DNA of 64,000 nucleotides from Oscillospiraceae bacterium (GTDB taxonomy: Bacteria; Bacillota; Clostridia; Oscillospirales; CAG-272): positions 61,090 to 125,089 of the forward strand of contig SVQI01000001.1 of assembly GCA_015065455.1 (NCBI GenBank). Direction: 5' to 3'. Position numbers and translations under genes: made by a program. Positions 6,906 through 63,692 of this stretch are shown here, one piece after another; the first letter of the stretch is position 1, and each line of letters starts with the position of its first letter. The notes below the pieces were generated by a model that did not search any database, was not told the origin of the DNA, and worked only from the letters and a program-made list of their open reading frames with translations.

Positions 6906-6921
6906 TTTAAAATAATTACAA

Positions 6922-6955
6922 AGCTCCCCGAAAAAATCGGGGAGCTTATTTTTAT
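6922..6955 (+). terminator. Intrinsic terminator of the lipoprotein gene
   Basis: AGCTCCCCGA-aaaaa-TCGGGGAGCT followed by a T-rich run. Confidence 0.8.
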
Positions 6956-6957
6956 TA

Positions 6958-7203
6958 TAAAACGGGCGGACAAACAAATCCGCCCCTACATAGTTAGGCT
7001 TTATTGTCTTGCTGTGCGTGTTCGAGATCCTTCGCTGCGCCGCCACGATGTCATTCTTGAGCGAAGCGAAGAATCCCGTGGCGGCTTGCTCAAGGATGAC
7101 AAACGAACACGCAATATAACGCGCTCCCGCGTTTTTTTAAAAGAGGCACAGATTGTCAGCTTCTTCGCTCCCGAACTCTTGACACCGCAAAAACTTTAAA
7201 TAG
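6958..7203 (+). repeat. Mosaic intergenic repeat, locus F (modules R, K, degenerate T, truncated H)
   Basis: Near-identical to 23425-23700 over the R and K modules. Lies in the convergent spacer between the lipoprotein gene and rplS. Confidence 0.9.
7015..7113 (+). repeat. Module K copy (orientation a)
   Basis: TGCGTGTTCG ... CGAACACGCA terminal inverted repeats enclose interleaved repeats B-C-D-B'-C'-D'. The C/C' pair is CCGCCACG/CGTGGCGG. Confidence 0.85.
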
Positions 7204-7235
7204 ATAATCATTTATTATTTTTCTATATTATTTTC

Positions 7236-12235: not shown

Positions 12236-13723
12236 ATGAAAAACATTAACTACATCAGCACAAGAGGAAACACAAATCCCGTATCTTCCGCGCAGGCTAT
12301 TAAGCAAGGTCTTGCCGATGACGGCGGTCTTTTTATGCCGGAAGCTATTCCCTCTCTTACAGAAAAGGATTTTGACGTATTGAAAAAGGCTTCGTATCCT
12401 GAAAGAGCCGCTTACGTTATGTCAAAGTTCCTTACTGATTACACATACGAAGAGCTTCTTGCAGATTGCAAGGAAAGCTATTCGGAAGCTCGCTTCCCCG
12501 GCGGTGCCGCTCCCTTAACAAACGTAGGAAATCTCCGTTTGCTTGAGCTTTGGCACGGTCCTACCTGCGCTTTCAAGGATATGGCGCTTCAGGTTATGCC
12601 GAGACTTCTTTCAAGAGCTTTGGTAAAGACGGGCGAAAAAAGAACTGCTTTTATCCTCGTTGCAACGTCAGGTGATACAGGTAAGGCTGCGCTTGAAGGC
12701 TACAAGGACGTTGACGGAATTAAAATTATGGTATTCTACCCCGTTGACGGCGTAAGTAAGGTTCAGAAATTACAGATGGCAACTCAGGAAGGAAACAACG
12801 TTACCGTTTGCGCTATCAAGGGTAACTTTGACGATGCTCAGAACGGCGTTAAAAAGATTTTCGGAAACGCTGAAACAGCAGAACTTTTAAACAAGAATGA
12901 CCACTTCTTCTCCTCGGCTAACTCTATTAACTGGGGCAGACTCGTTCCTCAGATAGTTTACTATATTTCTTCATACTGCGATATGGTAAACGCCGGCGAT
13001 ATAAATGAAGGAGACGAAGTAAATATATGCGTTCCCACAGGTAACTTCGGTAATATTTTTGCCGCTTATATTGCAAAAATGATGGGGCTTCCCGTTAACC
13101 GCTTTATCTGCGCTTCAAACTGCAACAATATCCTCACCGATTTTATTTCAACGGGTACGTACGACAGAAACCGTGCGTTCCACACGACTATGTCTCCCTC
13201 TATGGATATTCTTATTTCGAGCAACCTCGAAAGACTCCTCTACGTTATCGCAGGTCAGGAAAAGACTGCTTCTTATATGAAGGAGCTTAACACAAAGGGC
13301 GTATATACAGTAGAAAACGAAGTTAAAGAAAAGATTTCTTCTAACTTCTCAGGCTACTTCTGCGGAGAAGAGGATACCGCTAAAACCATTAAAGAAACTT
13401 TTGATAATTACAACTACCTCATTGATACTCATACGGCAGTAGCTGTTAAGTGCGCAAATGAGTATATGAAGGATACCGGAGATAACCGCAAGATAATCGT
13501 TGCTTCAACGGCATCTCCTTATAAGTTTGCATCAAATGTTTACACGTCTCTTACAGGCGAATCTCTTGAAAACGAATTTGATGCACTTAAGGCAACAGAA
13601 AAGCTTTCGGGTACAAATATTCCTACCCCCTTGGCAACACTTGAAAGCAAGGCTGTACGCTTTACTACCGTTATTAACCCCGATGATATGACTAAGGAAG
13701 TTTTAAAAACCATCGGAATCTGA
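12236..13723 (+). CDS. thrC: Threonine synthase (long form)
   Basis: PLP-lysine context PTCAFKDMALQ and TSGDTG are present. The 495-aa length fits the long ThrC class. Confidence 0.9.
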   Translation: MKNINYISTRGNTNPVSSAQAIKQGLADDGGLFMPEAIPSLTEKDFDVLKKASYPERAAYVMSKFLTDYTYEELLADCKESYSEARFPGGAAPLTNVGNLRLLELWHGPTCAFKDMALQVMPRLLSRALVKTGEKRTAFILVATSGDTGKAALEGYKDVDGIKIMVFYPVDGVSKVQKLQMATQEGNNVTVCAIKGNFDDAQNGVKKIFGNAETAELLNKNDHFFSSANSINWGRLVPQIVYYISSYCDMVNAGDINEGDEVNICVPTGNFGNIFAAYIAKMMGLPVNRFICASNCNNILTDFISTGTYDRNRAFHTTMSPSMDILISSNLERLLYVIAGQEKTASYMKELNTKGVYTVENEVKEKISSNFSGYFCGEEDTAKTIKETFDNYNYLIDTHTAVAVKCANEYMKDTGDNRKIIVASTASPYKFASNVYTSLTGESLENEFDALKATEKLSGTNIPTPLATLESKAVRFTTVINPDDMTKEVLKTIGI

Positions 13724-19933: not shown

Positions 19934-19981
19934 GCTCGAGAATGACAACGCGGCGGCGCAGCGAAGGATCCCGAACACGCA
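19934..19981 (-). repeat. Module K half copy (orientation b)
   Basis: GCTCGAGAATGACAACGCGGCGGCGCAGCGAAGGATCCCGAACACGCA equals the right half of the locus G copy. Confidence 0.8.
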
Positions 19982-20170
19982 ATTTAACGCGCTCTCGAAC
20001 CCTTGACAAAAGGGGCTTTTTAAAAAAAGCCCCTCTTGACTCCCCCAAAACTTTTAATAAAAATTTTTATATTATTATTTTAAAATAATATTTTAATTGC
20101 GCTTTTTGAAAAAAACTCCTTTGAAATCCGCAAAAACTTTAATAAGAATTTTAATTCTTATGCTTTGTGA

Positions 20171-23424: not shown

Positions 23425-23700
23425 AAAACGGTCGGACAAACAAATCCGCCCCTACATAGTTAGGCTTTATTGTCTTACTGTGCGTGTTCTAGATCCTTCG
23501 CTGCGCCGCCACGATGTCATTCTTGAGCGAAGCGAAGAATCCCGTGGCGGCTTGCTCAAGGATGACAAACGAACACGCAATATAACACGCTCCCGCGTTT
23601 TTTAAAAGGAGTCCATACAATCAGGAGCTTCGCTCCCGAACCCATACAAAAGGAGCGCTTTTAAAAAAGCGCCCTCTTGACTCCCTCAAAACTTTAAAAA
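23425..23700 (+). repeat. Mosaic intergenic repeat, locus F2 (modules R, K, T-like, H)
   Basis: Aligns with 6958-7203 and 62596-62820. Confidence 0.9.
23481..23579 (+). repeat. Module K copy (orientation a)
   Basis: Near-identical to 7015-7113. Confidence 0.85.
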
Positions 23701-39402: not shown

Positions 39403-40239
39403 ATGAACAACAACATTCAAGCAAGAACTCCCACAAGAAGAAAAAGACCACCTCAAAAGAAGTACAACAAAACAGGCAGACTTTTGCTCGTTATGGCGGT
39501 AGCTTCATTGTTAGCAATACTCGTAATATTTATTGTTGGATTTATTATAGGATACAGATACATTACGGTAAAAACAGACGACGGAACTATTAAATATTTT
39601 GGCACCGTTGATGCTACCGGTATGCTGAAAAAAGGCACTCTTTATTTCTCAAACGGAAACAAAGGTCTGGTTGACGGCAAAAAGAGTACAATAACCTATA
39701 CAAACGGCGACGTTTATACCGGCGGATTATCCCAGCTTCAGAAAAACGGCGAGGGAACACTGAAATATAAGAACGGAGACGTTTACGAGGGTGGATTTAA
39801 GGACAATCAGTTCTCGGGAAAAGGCGTATTTAAATACAAAAACGGAGACGTTTACGAGGGCGAATATAAAGAAGGTCTTATGGACGGAGAAGGAAAATAC
39901 ACCTGGTCCGACGGCTCTTCTTACGAGGGTGAATTTAAAGCAAACAAGCGTAACGGCCTCGGAAAATTTACAATAACCGATAGCTCATACTACGAAGGCA
40001 GCTACGTGAATGATGCAAAAGAAGGCAAGGGTAAGTATGTTTTTGAAAACGGCGACGTTTACGAAGGCGACTACAAAGCCGACATCAGAACAGGCAAAGG
40101 CACGTACACCTGGGCAAACGGTGAATGCTATACGGGTGATTTTGTAAACAACGATATGCACGGCTACGGCAAATACACATGGCCAAGCGGCAGAGTCTAC
40201 GAAGGCAAATTCCATCAGGGAAAAATTGTTGTTGAATAA
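39403..40239 (+). CDS. MORN-repeat membrane-anchored protein
   Basis: One N-terminal TM helix, then about 9 tandem repeats of Y.NGD.YEG....G...G.G. Confidence 0.75.
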   Translation: MNNNIQARTPTRRKRPPQKKYNKTGRLLLVMAVASLLAILVIFIVGFIIGYRYITVKTDDGTIKYFGTVDATGMLKKGTLYFSNGNKGLVDGKKSTITYTNGDVYTGGLSQLQKNGEGTLKYKNGDVYEGGFKDNQFSGKGVFKYKNGDVYEGEYKEGLMDGEGKYTWSDGSSYEGEFKANKRNGLGKFTITDSSYYEGSYVNDAKEGKGKYVFENGDVYEGDYKADIRTGKGTYTWANGECYTGDFVNNDMHGYGKYTWPSGRVYEGKFHQGKIVVE

Positions 40240-40287: not shown

Positions 40288-40960
40288 GTTGTCGGGTCGG
40301 AGGGAGAGATAATTGTTAATTATTTGATTGCAATATTGTTTGTTTAAACCGTTCATTTTTCTCTCCCTCAGTCAAAAACAAGTTTTTGACAGCTCCCTCG
40401 TCAGATGGAGCTAAAAGATACATTTTTAAAAAATCGGGACGTCGAGGAAGGGGTTCCCCGAAACGCACGAAGTAAGTTTTGAGGGTTCTCGTGTGCGCCG
40501 TCCCCTACCAAATTAGGCAATACCACTTTTGCAAACCAAGGGGGGTACCGAGGGAGGAACGCCCTCGGCCGTTTGAAAGGGAGGGGTCAAGGGGAGGGGA
40601 GGATCGGAACTCCCTCTCCCCTTTGTGCCTTCTTTGGTTACTTTCTTGGCACGCAAGAAAGTAACGTAAAAAAAGAAAAGACAATATTATCTGTTTAAAA
40701 CGTTTGCTTTTCTCTCCCTCAGTCAAAAACAAGTTTTTGACAGCGTCTACTGCGGTTCGGTCACGGCTCGGCTCTGACATCACACCGTGATGTCATTCAC
40801 TCCCTCGCCGCCGCTTCGCTACCTCGTCAGATGGAGCCGAGAATTACGCGCTTCGCGCGTAAAAAGACACAGAATGTCAGCTTCTTTGCTCCCAAACCCA
40901 CACAAGAGGAGAACTTTTAAAAAAGTGCCCTCTTGACTCCCTCAAAACTTTTAATAAAAA
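40288..40960 (+). repeat. Mosaic intergenic repeat, locus C (5'-truncated N, L, S, N-arm fragment, degenerate K, T, H)
   Basis: 40291-40666 aligns almost base for base with 19466-19840. Confidence 0.9.
40531..40666 (+). repeat. Module S copy 3
   Basis: Same architecture. Invariant hairpin at 40637-40665. Confidence 0.7.
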
Positions 40961-40983
40961 ATATTATATTATTTTTTTCAAAT

Positions 40984-55694: not shown

Positions 55695-56117
55695 ATAAAA
55701 CAAAAAGTATAACCTAACCTTCCATCTTTCGCAAACGATGGGGGTGCAAAGGGGGTAATCCCCCTTTGTCGTTTGGTGGTTGGGGGTCGAGGGGGAGGAG
55801 GAATCGGAACCTCCGCCCCCTTGTGCCTTCTTTGGTTACTTTCTTGGCACGCAAGAAAGTAACATAAAAAAGAAAAAGACAATATTATTTAGCCAAACAA
55901 TACGTTTTAAAACAAAAAAACGCTCTCGCGTTTTTCAAAGGAGCACAAACAATCAGGAGCTTCGCTCCCGAACCCACACAAAAGGAGCACTTTTGAAAAA
56001 GTGCCCTCTTGACTCCCTCAAAACTTTTAATAAAAAATTATATATTATTTTTTAAGATAATATTTTAATTACGCTTTTTGAAAAAAGCTCCTTTGGAATC
56101 CGCAAAAACTTTTATTA
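55695..56117 (+). repeat. Mosaic intergenic repeat, locus E (S with an alternative leader, partial T, H, H')
   Basis: It shares the leader ACAAAAAGTATAACCTAAC(C/T)TTCCATCTT with locus D. It has the invariant hairpin at 55835-55863 and H modules at 55980-56117. Confidence 0.9.
55731..55864 (+). repeat. Module S copy 5 (most divergent)
   Basis: Hairpin 1 is replaced by the unrelated CAAAGGGGG-taat-CCCCCTTTG. The G-rich hairpin is GGGGGAGGAGG-aatcggaa-CCTCCGCCCCC. Invariant hairpin at 55835-55863. Confidence 0.7.
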
Positions 56118-60068: not shown

Positions 60069-60078
60069 TTATTTTGAC

Positions 60079-60107
60079 AAAAGCCCAATCGGGCTTTTGT
60101 TTTTTTG
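60079..60107 (+). terminator. Intrinsic terminator after the 106-aa ORF
   Basis: AAAAGCCC-aatc-GGGCTTTT followed by GTTTTTTT. Confidence 0.8.
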
Positions 60108-60163: not shown

Positions 60164-60262
60164 TGCGTGTTCGATTGTCATCCTTGAGCAAGCCGCCGCG
60201 AGATTCTTCGCTACGCTCGAGAATGACAACGCGGCGGCGCAGCGAAGGATCCCGAACACGCA
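60164..60262 (-). repeat. Module K copy (orientation b, inverted relative to its downstream flank)
   Basis: The 79-nt interior equals the reverse complement of the interior of 62647-62745 at every position I checked by hand. Confidence 0.85.
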
Positions 60263-62252: not shown

Positions 62253-62259
62253 AAATATG

Positions 62260-62296
62260 ATACCGTTGCATTTTTACGTGCAACGGTATTTTTTTG
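62260..62296 (+). terminator. Intrinsic terminator after the thioesterase gene
   Basis: ATACCGTTGCA-tttttac(g)-TGCAACGGTAT followed by TTTTTTT. Confidence 0.8.
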
Positions 62297-62383: not shown

Positions 62384-62571
62384 ACCTCCATCTGACGAGG
62401 GAGGTGGCTCGGCAGTCAGCAAATATCAATTTTAATTTATCTTTGCTGCCGAGACGGAGGGAGAGATATGTGTTAGATTTTTGATTGCAATATTGTGTGT
62501 TTAAACCGTTCGTTCTTCTCTCCCTCAGTCATTTTCTAACAAAAATGCCAGCTCCCTCGTCAGATGGAGCT
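62384..62571 (+). repeat. Module N, complete copy
   Basis: Same outer arms (CTCCATCTGACGAGGGAG / CTCCCTCGTCAGATGGAG). The first hairpin is compensated to CTCGGCAG/CTGCCGAG. The third hairpin is replaced by CATTTTC-taac-(A)AAAATG. Confidence 0.8.
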
Positions 62572-62646: not shown

Positions 62647-62745
62647 CGCGTGTTCGGGATCCTTCGCTGCGCCGCCGCGTTGTCATTCTCGAGCGTAGCG
62701 AAGAATCTCGCGGCGGCTTGCTCAAGGATGACAATCGAACACGCA
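62647..62745 (+). repeat. Module K copy (orientation a)
   Basis: Same layout. The C/C' pair is CCGCCGCG/CGCGGCGG, a compensated change relative to locus F. Confidence 0.85.
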
Positions 62746-62962
62746 ATTTAACGCGCTCCCGAACCCACACAAGAGGTGCACTTTTGAAAAAGTGCCCTCT
62801 TGACTCCCTCAAAACTTTTAATAAAAATTTTTATATTATTTTAATTGCGCTTTTGAAAAAAGCTCCTTTGGAATCCGCAAAAACTTTAAATAGAAAAATA
62901 TCTTTACATTTTTTTATTAGTATGTTATACTAAAATGAGAGATAATATATATAAAAAAAGGG

Positions 62963-63304
62963 GTGTTACGTGTGGAAAATAACGTTTGCGACAACAAGGA
63001 TATTGCTTTTATTTGCGACGAAATGAAAAGACTTTTTGACATCGAATTGCTCGTTGTTTTCGGCATTAAACGCAGAGAAAAAGACAATGCAGTTACCGAC
63101 CTCGATATTTGCGTCGTTTGCGAACACGATAACAAAAACGCGTGGATTAAAAAAGCTTACCTCGAAATTGACAGCGATATTCCTTTTGATATTTCTCTGT
63201 ACACACCGTCGGAGTGGAACAGCTTAATTGAAAAACCCGAGAGCTTCGCCTCCCGAATTTTGCGAAAGGGGTGTGTAGTTTATGGCAAGACGCAAAACCA
63301 GTGA
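62963..63304 (+). CDS. Minimal nucleotidyltransferase (MNT) domain protein, putative antitoxin partner
   Basis: Pol-beta NTase pattern LLVVFGIKRREKDNAVTDLDICVV. GTG start at 62963, or at 62972 with an AAGGGG RBS 9 nt upstream. Confidence 0.7.
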   Translation: MLRVENNVCDNKDIAFICDEMKRLFDIELLVVFGIKRREKDNAVTDLDICVVCEHDNKNAWIKKAYLEIDSDIPFDISLYTPSEWNSLIEKPESFASRILRKGCVVYGKTQNQ

Positions 63305-63692
63305 CAGCAAGGTTTACACCGATTGGTTGATTTACGCCGAAAACGACCTCCGCGCCGCCGCTCTTCTGCGAAGAAGTCCGCATACGCTTTTGCTTTCCGC
63401 TTTTCATTCACATCAGGCAATCGAGAAAACCATCAAGGCTTTTATGCTTTCAAATAAGGGATACGCGCCCGACGGGCACAATATAATATTTTTGTGCAAG
63501 ATGGCGTCAAGGATAAACGAAGGATTTTTTGACTGGATTGACGAGTGCGTCGCACTCAACAACTACTACGTTCAAACAAGATATCCGCCCGACTTTCCTC
63601 TCGAAATCGACAAGGCAACCGCAAAGAAGCTTTCGATTATGGCGCAGAATCTATATAAATTTACGCTCAACGAGCTTGCTAAATTTGAGTAA
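63282..63692 (+). CDS. HEPN domain protein, putative toxin partner of the MNT
   Basis: HEPN pattern A..DL..A..L.......A.F..HQAIEK.IKAF...G....GHN...L and the C-terminal YYVQTRYP. The gene overlaps the MNT gene by 23 nt. Confidence 0.7.
   Translation: MARRKTSDSKVYTDWLIYAENDLRAAALLRRSPHTLLLSAFHSHQAIEKTIKAFMLSNKGYAPDGHNIIFLCKMASRINEGFFDWIDECVALNNYYVQTRYPPDFPLEIDKATAKKLSIMAQNLYKFTLNELAKFE

Follow-up and report, generated by a model that had tools for sequence, protein, structure and literature searches.

Our analysis concerns module K, a 99-bp repeat at positions 7015 to 7113 of a 64,000-nt stretch of an Oscillospiraceae genome (contig SVQI01000001.1, positions 61,090 to 125,089). This stretch is called the window here, and coordinates are counted from its first letter. 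We are highly confident that K is made of two copies of a quasi-palindromic hairpin, which we call W (GTCATYCTGAGCGNAGCGAAGRATC), one copy sitting inverted in the loop of the other. The layout is left part of the reverse complement of W2, C, W1, C', and right part of the reverse complement of W2. As to its nature, K is probably a non-coding repeat of the repetitive extragenic palindromic (REP) type, a hairpin nested in a hairpin.

The original prediction had described K as three inverted-repeat pairs in the order B-C-D-B'-C'-D' between 10-bp terminal inverted repeats. The arms and the six blocks of the focal copy read exactly as claimed:

7015-7113, + strand: module K, focal copy; 99 bp, type I (C = CCGCCACG); 113.9 bits in nhmmer
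7015-7024, + strand: left arm of the outer clamp, TGCGTGTTCG; 10 nt, 100% complementary to its partner at 7104-7113
7026-7039, - strand: block B, GATCCTTCGCTGCG; 3' part of the outer copy W2, matching the reverse-complement consensus of W, GATYCTTCGCTNCG, over its positions 1-14
7040-7047, + strand: inner clamp arm C, CCGCCACG; partner C' at 7077-7084, 100% paired in all K copies
7048-7062: block D, ATGTCATTCTTGAGC
7063-7075: block B', GAAGCGAAGAATC
7049-7075, + strand: inner hairpin copy W1 (D plus B'); tag TGTC, stem ATTCTT/AAGAAT, loop GAGCGAAGCG; the GTCATYCTGAGCGNAGCGAAGRATC motif plus one extra T
7061-7067, + strand: apex of K, GCGAAGC (GCGTAGC in type II), the GCGNAGC DNA mini-hairpin motif
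7077-7084, + strand: inner clamp arm C', CGTGGCGG
7088-7100 (7088-7101 with an added A), - strand: block D', GCTCAAGGATGAC; 5' part of W2, which contributes the TGTC tag of that copy (read as GACA on the + strand)
7104-7113, + strand: right arm of the outer clamp, CGAACACGCA

A repeat search of 7005-7125 independently recovered the perfect 10-nt arms, the B:B' complementarity (18 nt, 83%), and the D:D' complementarity (14 nt, 93%). The same search returned a nested pair, GCCACGATGTCATTCTT and AAGAATCCCGTGGCGGC, that is 71% complementary and joins C plus D to B' plus C'.

What relates the six blocks to one another? The center of K, D followed by B', is GTCATTCTTGAGCGAAGCGAAGAATC, which is W1. 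The outer blocks, when joined (GATCCTTCGCTGCG...GCTCAAGGATGACA), give the reverse complement of W, split at its loop. Comparison with the reverse complement of W1 revealed identity at 10/11 positions in B and 12/13 in D', against 2/11 and 2/13 in the same-strand control. Both B and D' also match the W consensus obtained from unrelated contigs. The W1 stem (ATTCTT/AAGAAT) and the W2 stem (ATCCTT/AAGGAT) differ by the same covariation that is found among W sites at large. In addition, both copies share one inserted nucleotide, a form seldom met outside K (4 viral stretches, compared to at least 120 for the standard form). On sequence grounds W1 and W2 are each other's closest relatives, because they share this extra base.

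W1 and W2 are reverse complements of each other; complementarity therefore also links B with B' and D with D', and the partner blocks follow in the same order. The crossing complementarity is therefore a by-product of inverted W homology and is no evidence for a pseudoknot. Alternative stem-loops or a pseudoknot-like fold, which had been inferred from the same-order blocks, are not needed once K is read as two inverted W copies with one nested in the other's loop. Tandem duplication of a simple palindrome, which had been named as another possible origin of the pattern, was rejected; the block order would be wrong.

W also occurs outside K. It is a 25-nt quasi-palindromic hairpin with an unpaired TGTC tag, a stem starting with AT, a GCGNAGC mini-hairpin loop, and a short tail. 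GTCATYCTGAGCGNAGCGAAGRATC matches at least 120 stretches of viral contigs (loci L021-L140), and W is present on plasmids of Planktothrix, Calothrix, Oscillatoria, Granulicella, Hymenobacter, Phocaeicola, and Novosphingobium, hosts that cover the cyanobacteria, Acidobacteria, Bacteroidota, and Alphaproteobacteria. The consensus and the counts were taken from 144 unrelated sites, matched with a search pattern that prescribes the G and A of the loop. At these sites, covariation between the two degenerate positions of the stem is almost perfect (T/A 88, C/G 55, T/G 1, C/A 0), and the implied fold is ATYCT/AGRAT followed by a tandem G/A and GC-GNA-GC. The loop N is unconstrained (C 57, A 49, G 23, T 15), as the GNA rule would have it. 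GCGNAGC is an unusually stable DNA mini-hairpin that follows the GNA loop rule (review PMC13037366), and the apex of K, GCGAAGC or GCGTAGC, fits it; the work covered there concerns oligonucleotides, phage origins, and promoters, not dispersed repeats.

The base ahead of GTC in W is T in 118/135 sites and C in 11/135. The consensus tail is C-T-C, with T at +1 in 110/135 sites and C at +2 in 81/135; in K it is CCC or CTC. Pairs of W in viral contigs lie mostly with their tags outside (28 versus 3 with tags inside). W avoids long open reading frames (ORFs), with 47% of sites inside one compared to 84% of random positions. The W1 variant with the extra base, GTCATTCTTGAGCGAAGCGAAGAATC, stands alone in viral contigs L017-L020. 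W is not in Rfam, where the W-bearing loci gave only an unrelated Acido-Lenti-1 match, and a full-text literature search for the W sequence yielded nothing relevant and no name. The Acido-Lenti-1 RNA match itself is clear (59.9 bits; viral contig L031, 160-205) and lies ∼200 nt from a W hairpin pair. In this genome, W was seen only inside K, in nested form (∼6.5 K copies in ∼82 kb); stand-alone W-type hairpins in the window outside K did not exceed the shuffle expectation, and none was found.

Can K fold as one hairpin? The original prediction had held that it cannot be one simple hairpin. This is true of the three pairings it listed (B:B', C:C', and D:D'), which do cross one another. It overlooked the set B:D', C:C', and D:B', which forms a nested hairpin of minimum energy on both strands. 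Because B and D share the core ATYCTT, K is one hairpin in spite of its crossing blocks, with the helices ATCCTT/AAGGAT (B:D') and ATTCTT/AAGAAT (D:B'). In each of these helices a W copy folds back on itself, and together with the two clamps they make one long imperfect nested hairpin. In ViennaRNA, this single nested hairpin was the minimum-energy structure of either strand, whether RNA or DNA parameters were used. Its parts, going inward, are the 10-bp outer clamp, B:D' with 6+2 bp, C:C' with 9 bp, D:B' with 6 bp, and the GC(GAA)GC tip. The energies of the nested fold range from -44.5 to -47.1 kcal/mol with RNA parameters; the focal copy reaches -44.5 kcal/mol (RNA) and -28.4 kcal/mol (DNA). 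The z scores lie between -3.4 and -5.4, and no shuffled sequence equals the native fold. The ensemble probability of C:C' is 0.92-0.99 in every variant except one. Folds forced through D:D' or B:B' were 2-8 kcal/mol worse in most copies, at an ensemble probability of at most 0.04. We consider a single long hairpin, or a cruciform in duplex DNA, the most likely form of K.

Which pairings has evolution kept? A profile built from the copies (nhmmer) located five K loci in the window, four full copies and one half copy, and two sequence types. Type I comprises the copies at 7015 and 23481, and type II comprises those at 62647 and 60164 and the half copy. The loci other than the focal one are as follows:

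23481-23579, + strand: K copy, type I; one left-clamp mismatch, which is polymorphic among strains (G in L003)
62647-62745, + strand: K copy, type II (C = CCGCCGCG), found with nhmmer
60164-60262, - strand: K copy, type II; interior inverted relative to the common right-hand flank AATTTAACGCGCTC, 1 nt off the 62647 copy
19934-19981, - strand: K half copy with clamp, B, C, and D, which make up one arm of the nested palindrome (nhmmer model positions 1-48), fused at GGCTCG to another repeat module

The window contains 2 exact matches to the pattern TGCGTGTTCG-N(60-90)-CGAACACGCA, compared to 0.00 expected from shuffles, and 9 matches to the D motif, compared to 0.10 expected. A further ∼18 kb of the same genome (L141-L144) adds one K, at 13120-13218 of L141, which is of type II with one substitution in B'. 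A divergent K was found at 700-798 of L015, a related 1.2-kb metagenome contig. L015 and L016 were reached by searching with the concatenated K translations, through one spurious-ORF protein (P0121). Scans for K in species-representative genomes and in JGI metagenome contigs each gave a single chance match, located within a coding sequence, and a whole-K scan of viral contigs returned none. BLAST of K against plasmids and phages gave only partial matches to W parts or chance matches, and Rfam gave no K match at gathering thresholds and only noise at E values up to 10. A coding role for K was rejected; four of its six frames are open only through the GC-rich palindrome, and both orientations occur. 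The JGI annotation places a 61-amino-acid gene over K at 15220-15405 of L143 (window 7014-7199), which is almost certainly spurious.

Compensation of the C/C' pair on both sides between the copies at 7015/23481 and those at 60164/62647 had been pointed out before, and the alignment bears it out: C/C' is CCGCCACG/CGTGGCGG in the former and CCGCCGCG/CGCGGCGG in the latter. Within the window this is a single event, because only two sequence types are present there. L015 supplies a third compensated state, CCGCCCCG/CGGGGCGG, so that the C:C' pair 31/65 occurs in three states (A-U, G-C, and C-G). L015 also shows a double change from U-A to C-G at pair 8/92 of the outer clamp. Both pairs belong to the nested and to the crossing model alike. 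B:B' has no double-sided change, pairs at 88.5% of positions across the six K sequences, and has 3/13 mismatches in L015.

Two distant homologues of K lie upstream of gdpP, at 9660-9798 of L014 (inverted) and at 8819-8994 of L146, in species with a GdpP that shares 71-72% identity with that of the window. Both have the layout b-C-[d..b']-C'-d' and align with K over B, the halves of W1, and D'. Their clamps are of new sequence yet fully complementary (TTTTCCCCG/CGGGGAAAA and TTCCCCCCG/CGGGGGGGA). The W2 stem B:D' is compensated in L014 (ATCTT/AAGAT). B:B' shrinks in both to a 4-bp run, the level of random 15-mers, and D:D' stays high. The persistence of D:D' follows from its make-up, because it is the tag plus stem of W, which is conserved in sequence in every W, and two inverted W copies suffice to produce it. 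Loss of the complementarities had been named as a result that would speak against the original prediction; in these homologues it was borne out for B:B', while C:C' and D:D' are kept. Conservation extends to the W parts but not to the outer clamp, whose sequence is another one in L014 and which L146 lacks. On comparative grounds, L014 and L146 decide for the nested model, with its helices kept by compensation and B:B' lost.

The architecture of K is conserved in a small clade of Oscillospiraceae. The window GdpP is 100% identical to an NCBI protein from a "Ruminococcaceae bacterium" metagenome-assembled genome, an uncultured member of the Oscillospiraceae of rumen or gut, and its closest relatives are metagenome proteins with 62-91% identity. 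Among close relatives with a GdpP 74-79% identical (L005-L013, L145, and L147), no K was found within ∼10 kb of gdpP. Within the homologues, W1 of L014 and L146 holds a further 45-nt insert with its own GCG(T/G)AGC mini-hairpin, and the C arm of L146 holds a 46-nt AT-rich palindrome, a third level of hairpin nesting. The junctions of the W2 loop in L014 and L146 (CTGCG, the insert, CTYCGCTC) suggest a possible 2-bp CG duplication.

Several observations weigh against our reading of K as nested palindromes of the REP type. The sample is small: 7 K loci (∼6.5 copies) in ∼82 kb represent four variants, to which the L015 copy and the two distant homologues are added. The alignment of K alone cannot separate the two models; in six K sequences, pairs are intact at 96.7% under the nested and 94.3% under the crossing model. 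The inner W1 stem has only 4 bp in L014 and L146. K-like nesting was present at 0/143 viral W sites, and clamps around viral W sites were no commoner than in shuffled pairings. Insertion into a loop as a general process therefore finds no support in the viral W sites. Inspection of all flanks revealed no target-site duplication at any K copy. No transposase (including Y1/HUH and RAYT, the REP-associated tyrosine transposase) was detected among the 10 scanned ORFs or the Pfam-annotated neighbors, the other ORFs of the window and the rest of the genome being unsearched.

The remaining adverse points are those that would favor a functional bistable element or pseudoknot, in RNA or single-stranded DNA, in which the crossing complementarity is under selection. 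Folds with D:D' or B:B' lie as little as 2 and at most 8 kcal/mol above the minimum. In the L141 copy (13120-13218), a single A-to-G change makes B:B' perfect, and the + strand flips to the B:B' fold (probability 0.52-0.66). The helix energies of the outer clamp, B:B', and D:D' sum to -45 to -47 kcal/mol, which approximately equals the nested minimum before any pseudoknot penalty. On these folding models, the window copies may be thermodynamically able to adopt another fold, pseudoknotted or not. At the D:D' pair 44/78, 2 copies have U-A, 1 has C-G, and 3 are unpaired, a possible two-step compensation. Finally, 2 of ∼14 substitutions, one in the L141 copy and one in L015, raise the complementarity between W1 and W2; these gains could come from selection on crossing pairs or from gene conversion between the copies.

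Against such a switch or pseudoknot stand the chance level of B:B' in L014 and L146 and its mismatches in L015, where alternative folds have a probability of at most 4e-4. The type II copies hold an uncompensated intermediate at pair 44/78. D:D' would persist as conserved tag and stem without any pairing constraint. A defined RNA is difficult to reconcile with the position of K downstream of intrinsic terminators and in both orientations. There is no Rfam match, and compensated crossing helices were not found across the homologues. We therefore consider a bistable element or pseudoknot improbable.

The setting of K bears on the other explanations. All K copies are intergenic, 60-360 nt past intrinsic terminators and ahead of promoter-like modules, and they occur in both orientations relative to the surrounding genes. 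The terminators upstream of K lie at the following positions:

6921-6947: intrinsic terminator
60076-60101: intrinsic terminator
62259-62290: intrinsic terminator

Beyond the focal K, a promoter-like TTGACA-18-GATAAT spans 7179-7208. The L015 copy is flanked by two terminator hairpins, and its flanks are unrelated to those of the window copies. K is one module of an intergenic mosaic: the window contains 43 families of direct repeats, of which the 20 largest were listed, and the K copies sit in larger duplicated cassettes of at least 200 nt (families D2 and D10). The half copy stops precisely where the nested hairpin has its apex, and its junction module recurs at 40740-40770. Examples of the mosaic lie at 342-394, 20006-20143, 40902-40978, 55978-56116, and 62769-62890; its modules include one present in 11 copies, which combines a hairpin with a TTGACT promoter-like element, and one present in 5 copies, CCTTCTTTGGTTACTTTCTTGGCACGCAAGAAAGTAAC. 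Repeat modules of this kind appear to act as recombination points, because a strain breakpoint falls inside one of them (...CAGATGGAGC), ∼100 nt upstream of K. In the comparison of L142 (9200-9280) with L141 (window ∼62530-62560), the other strain carries a helicase gene instead of the fba and thioesterase genes upstream.

Could K be a classical miniature inverted-repeat transposable element (MITE), moved by a transposase that cuts and pastes it through the 10-bp terminal inverted repeats, with the internal blocks incidental? The perfect terminal repeats, the uniform 99-bp length, and the near-identity of the copies fit this idea. So do the occurrence of either orientation beside the same flank and the unrelated flanks in L015. 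It is contradicted by the missing target-site duplications, by the transposase found in neither the scanned nor the annotated ORFs, and by the embedding of copies in the duplicated cassettes. The outer clamp differs in L014 and is missing in L146, and it is the W parts that are conserved. We regard a classical MITE as unlikely.

The copy at 60164 is the exact inverse of the copy at 62647, bar 1 nt, beside the identical right-hand flank AATTTAACGCGCTC. The same observation could be read as a site-specific invertible switch, in which the 79-bp interior flips between the 10-bp repeats. The two orientations, however, are found at different loci with different left flanks, and K has the same orientation in both contigs of each locus that was seen twice (L002/L003, L141/L142, and L143/L144). 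The 79-bp interior is nearly palindromic and would change little when flipped, and no recombinase gene is present among the annotated neighbors of K. This explanation is hardly credible. The two copies (60164-60262 and 62647-62745), 98/99 identical, inverted, and 2.4 kb apart, enclose the genes for fructose-bisphosphate aldolase and an acyl-ACP thioesterase.

A third proposal treats K as a binding platform on double-stranded DNA, with the four W half-sites as operators. The conservation of the half-sequences while the clamps vary would suit operators, as would the location between terminators and promoter-like modules. The W stem positions covary, however, which indicates pairing rather than read-out of a duplex sequence; the loop follows the GNA rule of single-strand DNA mini-hairpins, and half-sites of one type are ∼38 bp apart. 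We therefore hold a binding platform to be very unlikely.

Two further features of the window are recorded here. Just past the K copy at 62647 and its promoter-like modules, at 62963-63692, lie two small overlapping genes. The second encodes a HEPN domain (PF05168), and the two may thus form a toxin-antitoxin-like pair. At 39694-40079, tandem 69-nt coding repeats encode a repeat protein of the YxNGDVYEG type (MORN-like).

How does the nested palindrome compare with known repeats? The nearest class is that of the CGTC-tagged REPs (Di Nocera, De Gregorio and Rocco 2013, BMC Genomics 14:522; PMC3733652). These have an unpaired tag, with CGTC turned to TGTC in many repeats, stems that start with a complementary A/T, and short tails. 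They occur mainly as dimers with the tags outside, and no dedicated transposase is known for them. W is alike in its unpaired tag and AT stem start, in having a short tail, and, at the viral sites, in its tags-outside dimers; it is likewise mostly intergenic, spread across phyla, and not known to have a transposase of its own. The tag itself is present in both copies, TGTC at 7049-7052 in W1 and at 7101-7098 on the - strand in W2. The four published families, with which W was compared by description, have stems of 8-9 bp, loops of 4-5 nt, and mostly a CCA tail (PMC3733652). W differs in having 5-6 Watson-Crick pairs, a tandem G/A, 2 GC pairs, a GNA triloop, and a CTC or CCC tail. The Firmicutes are outside the five phyla listed for CGTC REPs in PMC3733652. 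The units of K are nested, one in the loop of the other, unlike CGTC REP dimers, which lie side by side.

Other features recall mosaic repeats. REPs at times interrupt small GC-rich palindromes (CCGSSCC...GGSSCGG) and lie among repeats of other families, and the CGTC units of Neisseria (dRS3) occur in mosaic intergenic arrays (PMC3733652). K, beside common modules and with a half copy fused to another module, resembles such arrays as seen in bacterial interspersed mosaic elements (BIMEs) and Neisseria intergenic mosaic elements (NIMEs). With bacterial MITEs and mosaic repeats in general (Correia/NEMIS, RUP, BOX, ERIC, BIME, and NIME; summarized in PMC3733652), K shares the size of ∼100 bp, the terminal inverted repeats, the intergenic site, the stable stem-loop, and the modular combination. 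It differs from them in the absence of target-site duplications and in the terminal repeats, which are unconserved while the internal W parts are conserved; no related insertion sequence was found. REP doublets forming hairpins (REPINs; Bertels and Rainey 2011, PMC3116915) are likewise made of two inverted REPs in one larger hairpin-forming unit, and pairing is possible within and between the REPs. The partners of a REPIN, however, are adjacent with a spacer and their between-REP pairing is nested, whereas the between-REP pairing of K crosses, and the K layout is thus not that of a REPIN. REPINs use GTAG-type REPs and a RAYT transposase, of which there was none among the ORFs scanned or annotated here.

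We conclude that K is probably a new, nested variant of REP-type palindromic repeats. As a lead only, cyanobacterial near-palindromic repeats of 21-27 nt, said to have been reported by Elhai et al. in 2008 (Genome Res 18:1484), are reportedly often embedded in other repeats and seemingly mobile; the host phylum differs.

What might K do, and how might it spread? Its mobility, spread mechanism, and function can be approached only by analogy, and statements about them are far less certain than the architecture. K would act as single-stranded or cruciform DNA, as REPs and REPINs do, rather than within mRNA. Its copy number would rise through duplication and recombination of the mosaic intergenic cassettes, and a putative hairpin-directed single-strand-DNA enzyme may add to its spread. 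If K affects the cell, it would do so as a stable stem-loop that separates a terminator from the promoter that follows, insulating one from the other or blocking exonucleases. A bolder version would make the K family a conserved functional single-strand nucleic-acid device of the Oscillospiraceae clade: with covarying clamps and one tagged hairpin per DNA strand, it would be a nested analogue of REPINs for the putative enzyme, toggling between the closed nested hairpin and an open form paired through W1 and W2. We regard this version as doubtful.

These results have a bearing on motif hunting. A quasi-palindromic hairpin that nests inverted in the loop of its own copy will always yield same-order, crossing complementary blocks, and such a pattern by itself is no evidence of a pseudoknot. 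They also bring forward W (GTCATYCTGAGCGNAGCGAAGRATC) as a cross-phylum motif, for which we found no description, with a covarying stem and a DNA mini-hairpin loop, carried on viral contigs and plasmids. K would extend the CGTC/TGTC-type REPs to a lineage of Clostridia, in a phylum outside the list of the 2013 survey. How such REPs are made and spread is a question on which the features of K bear, with clamps that turn over by compensation, W parts that stay fixed, and nesting to a third level.

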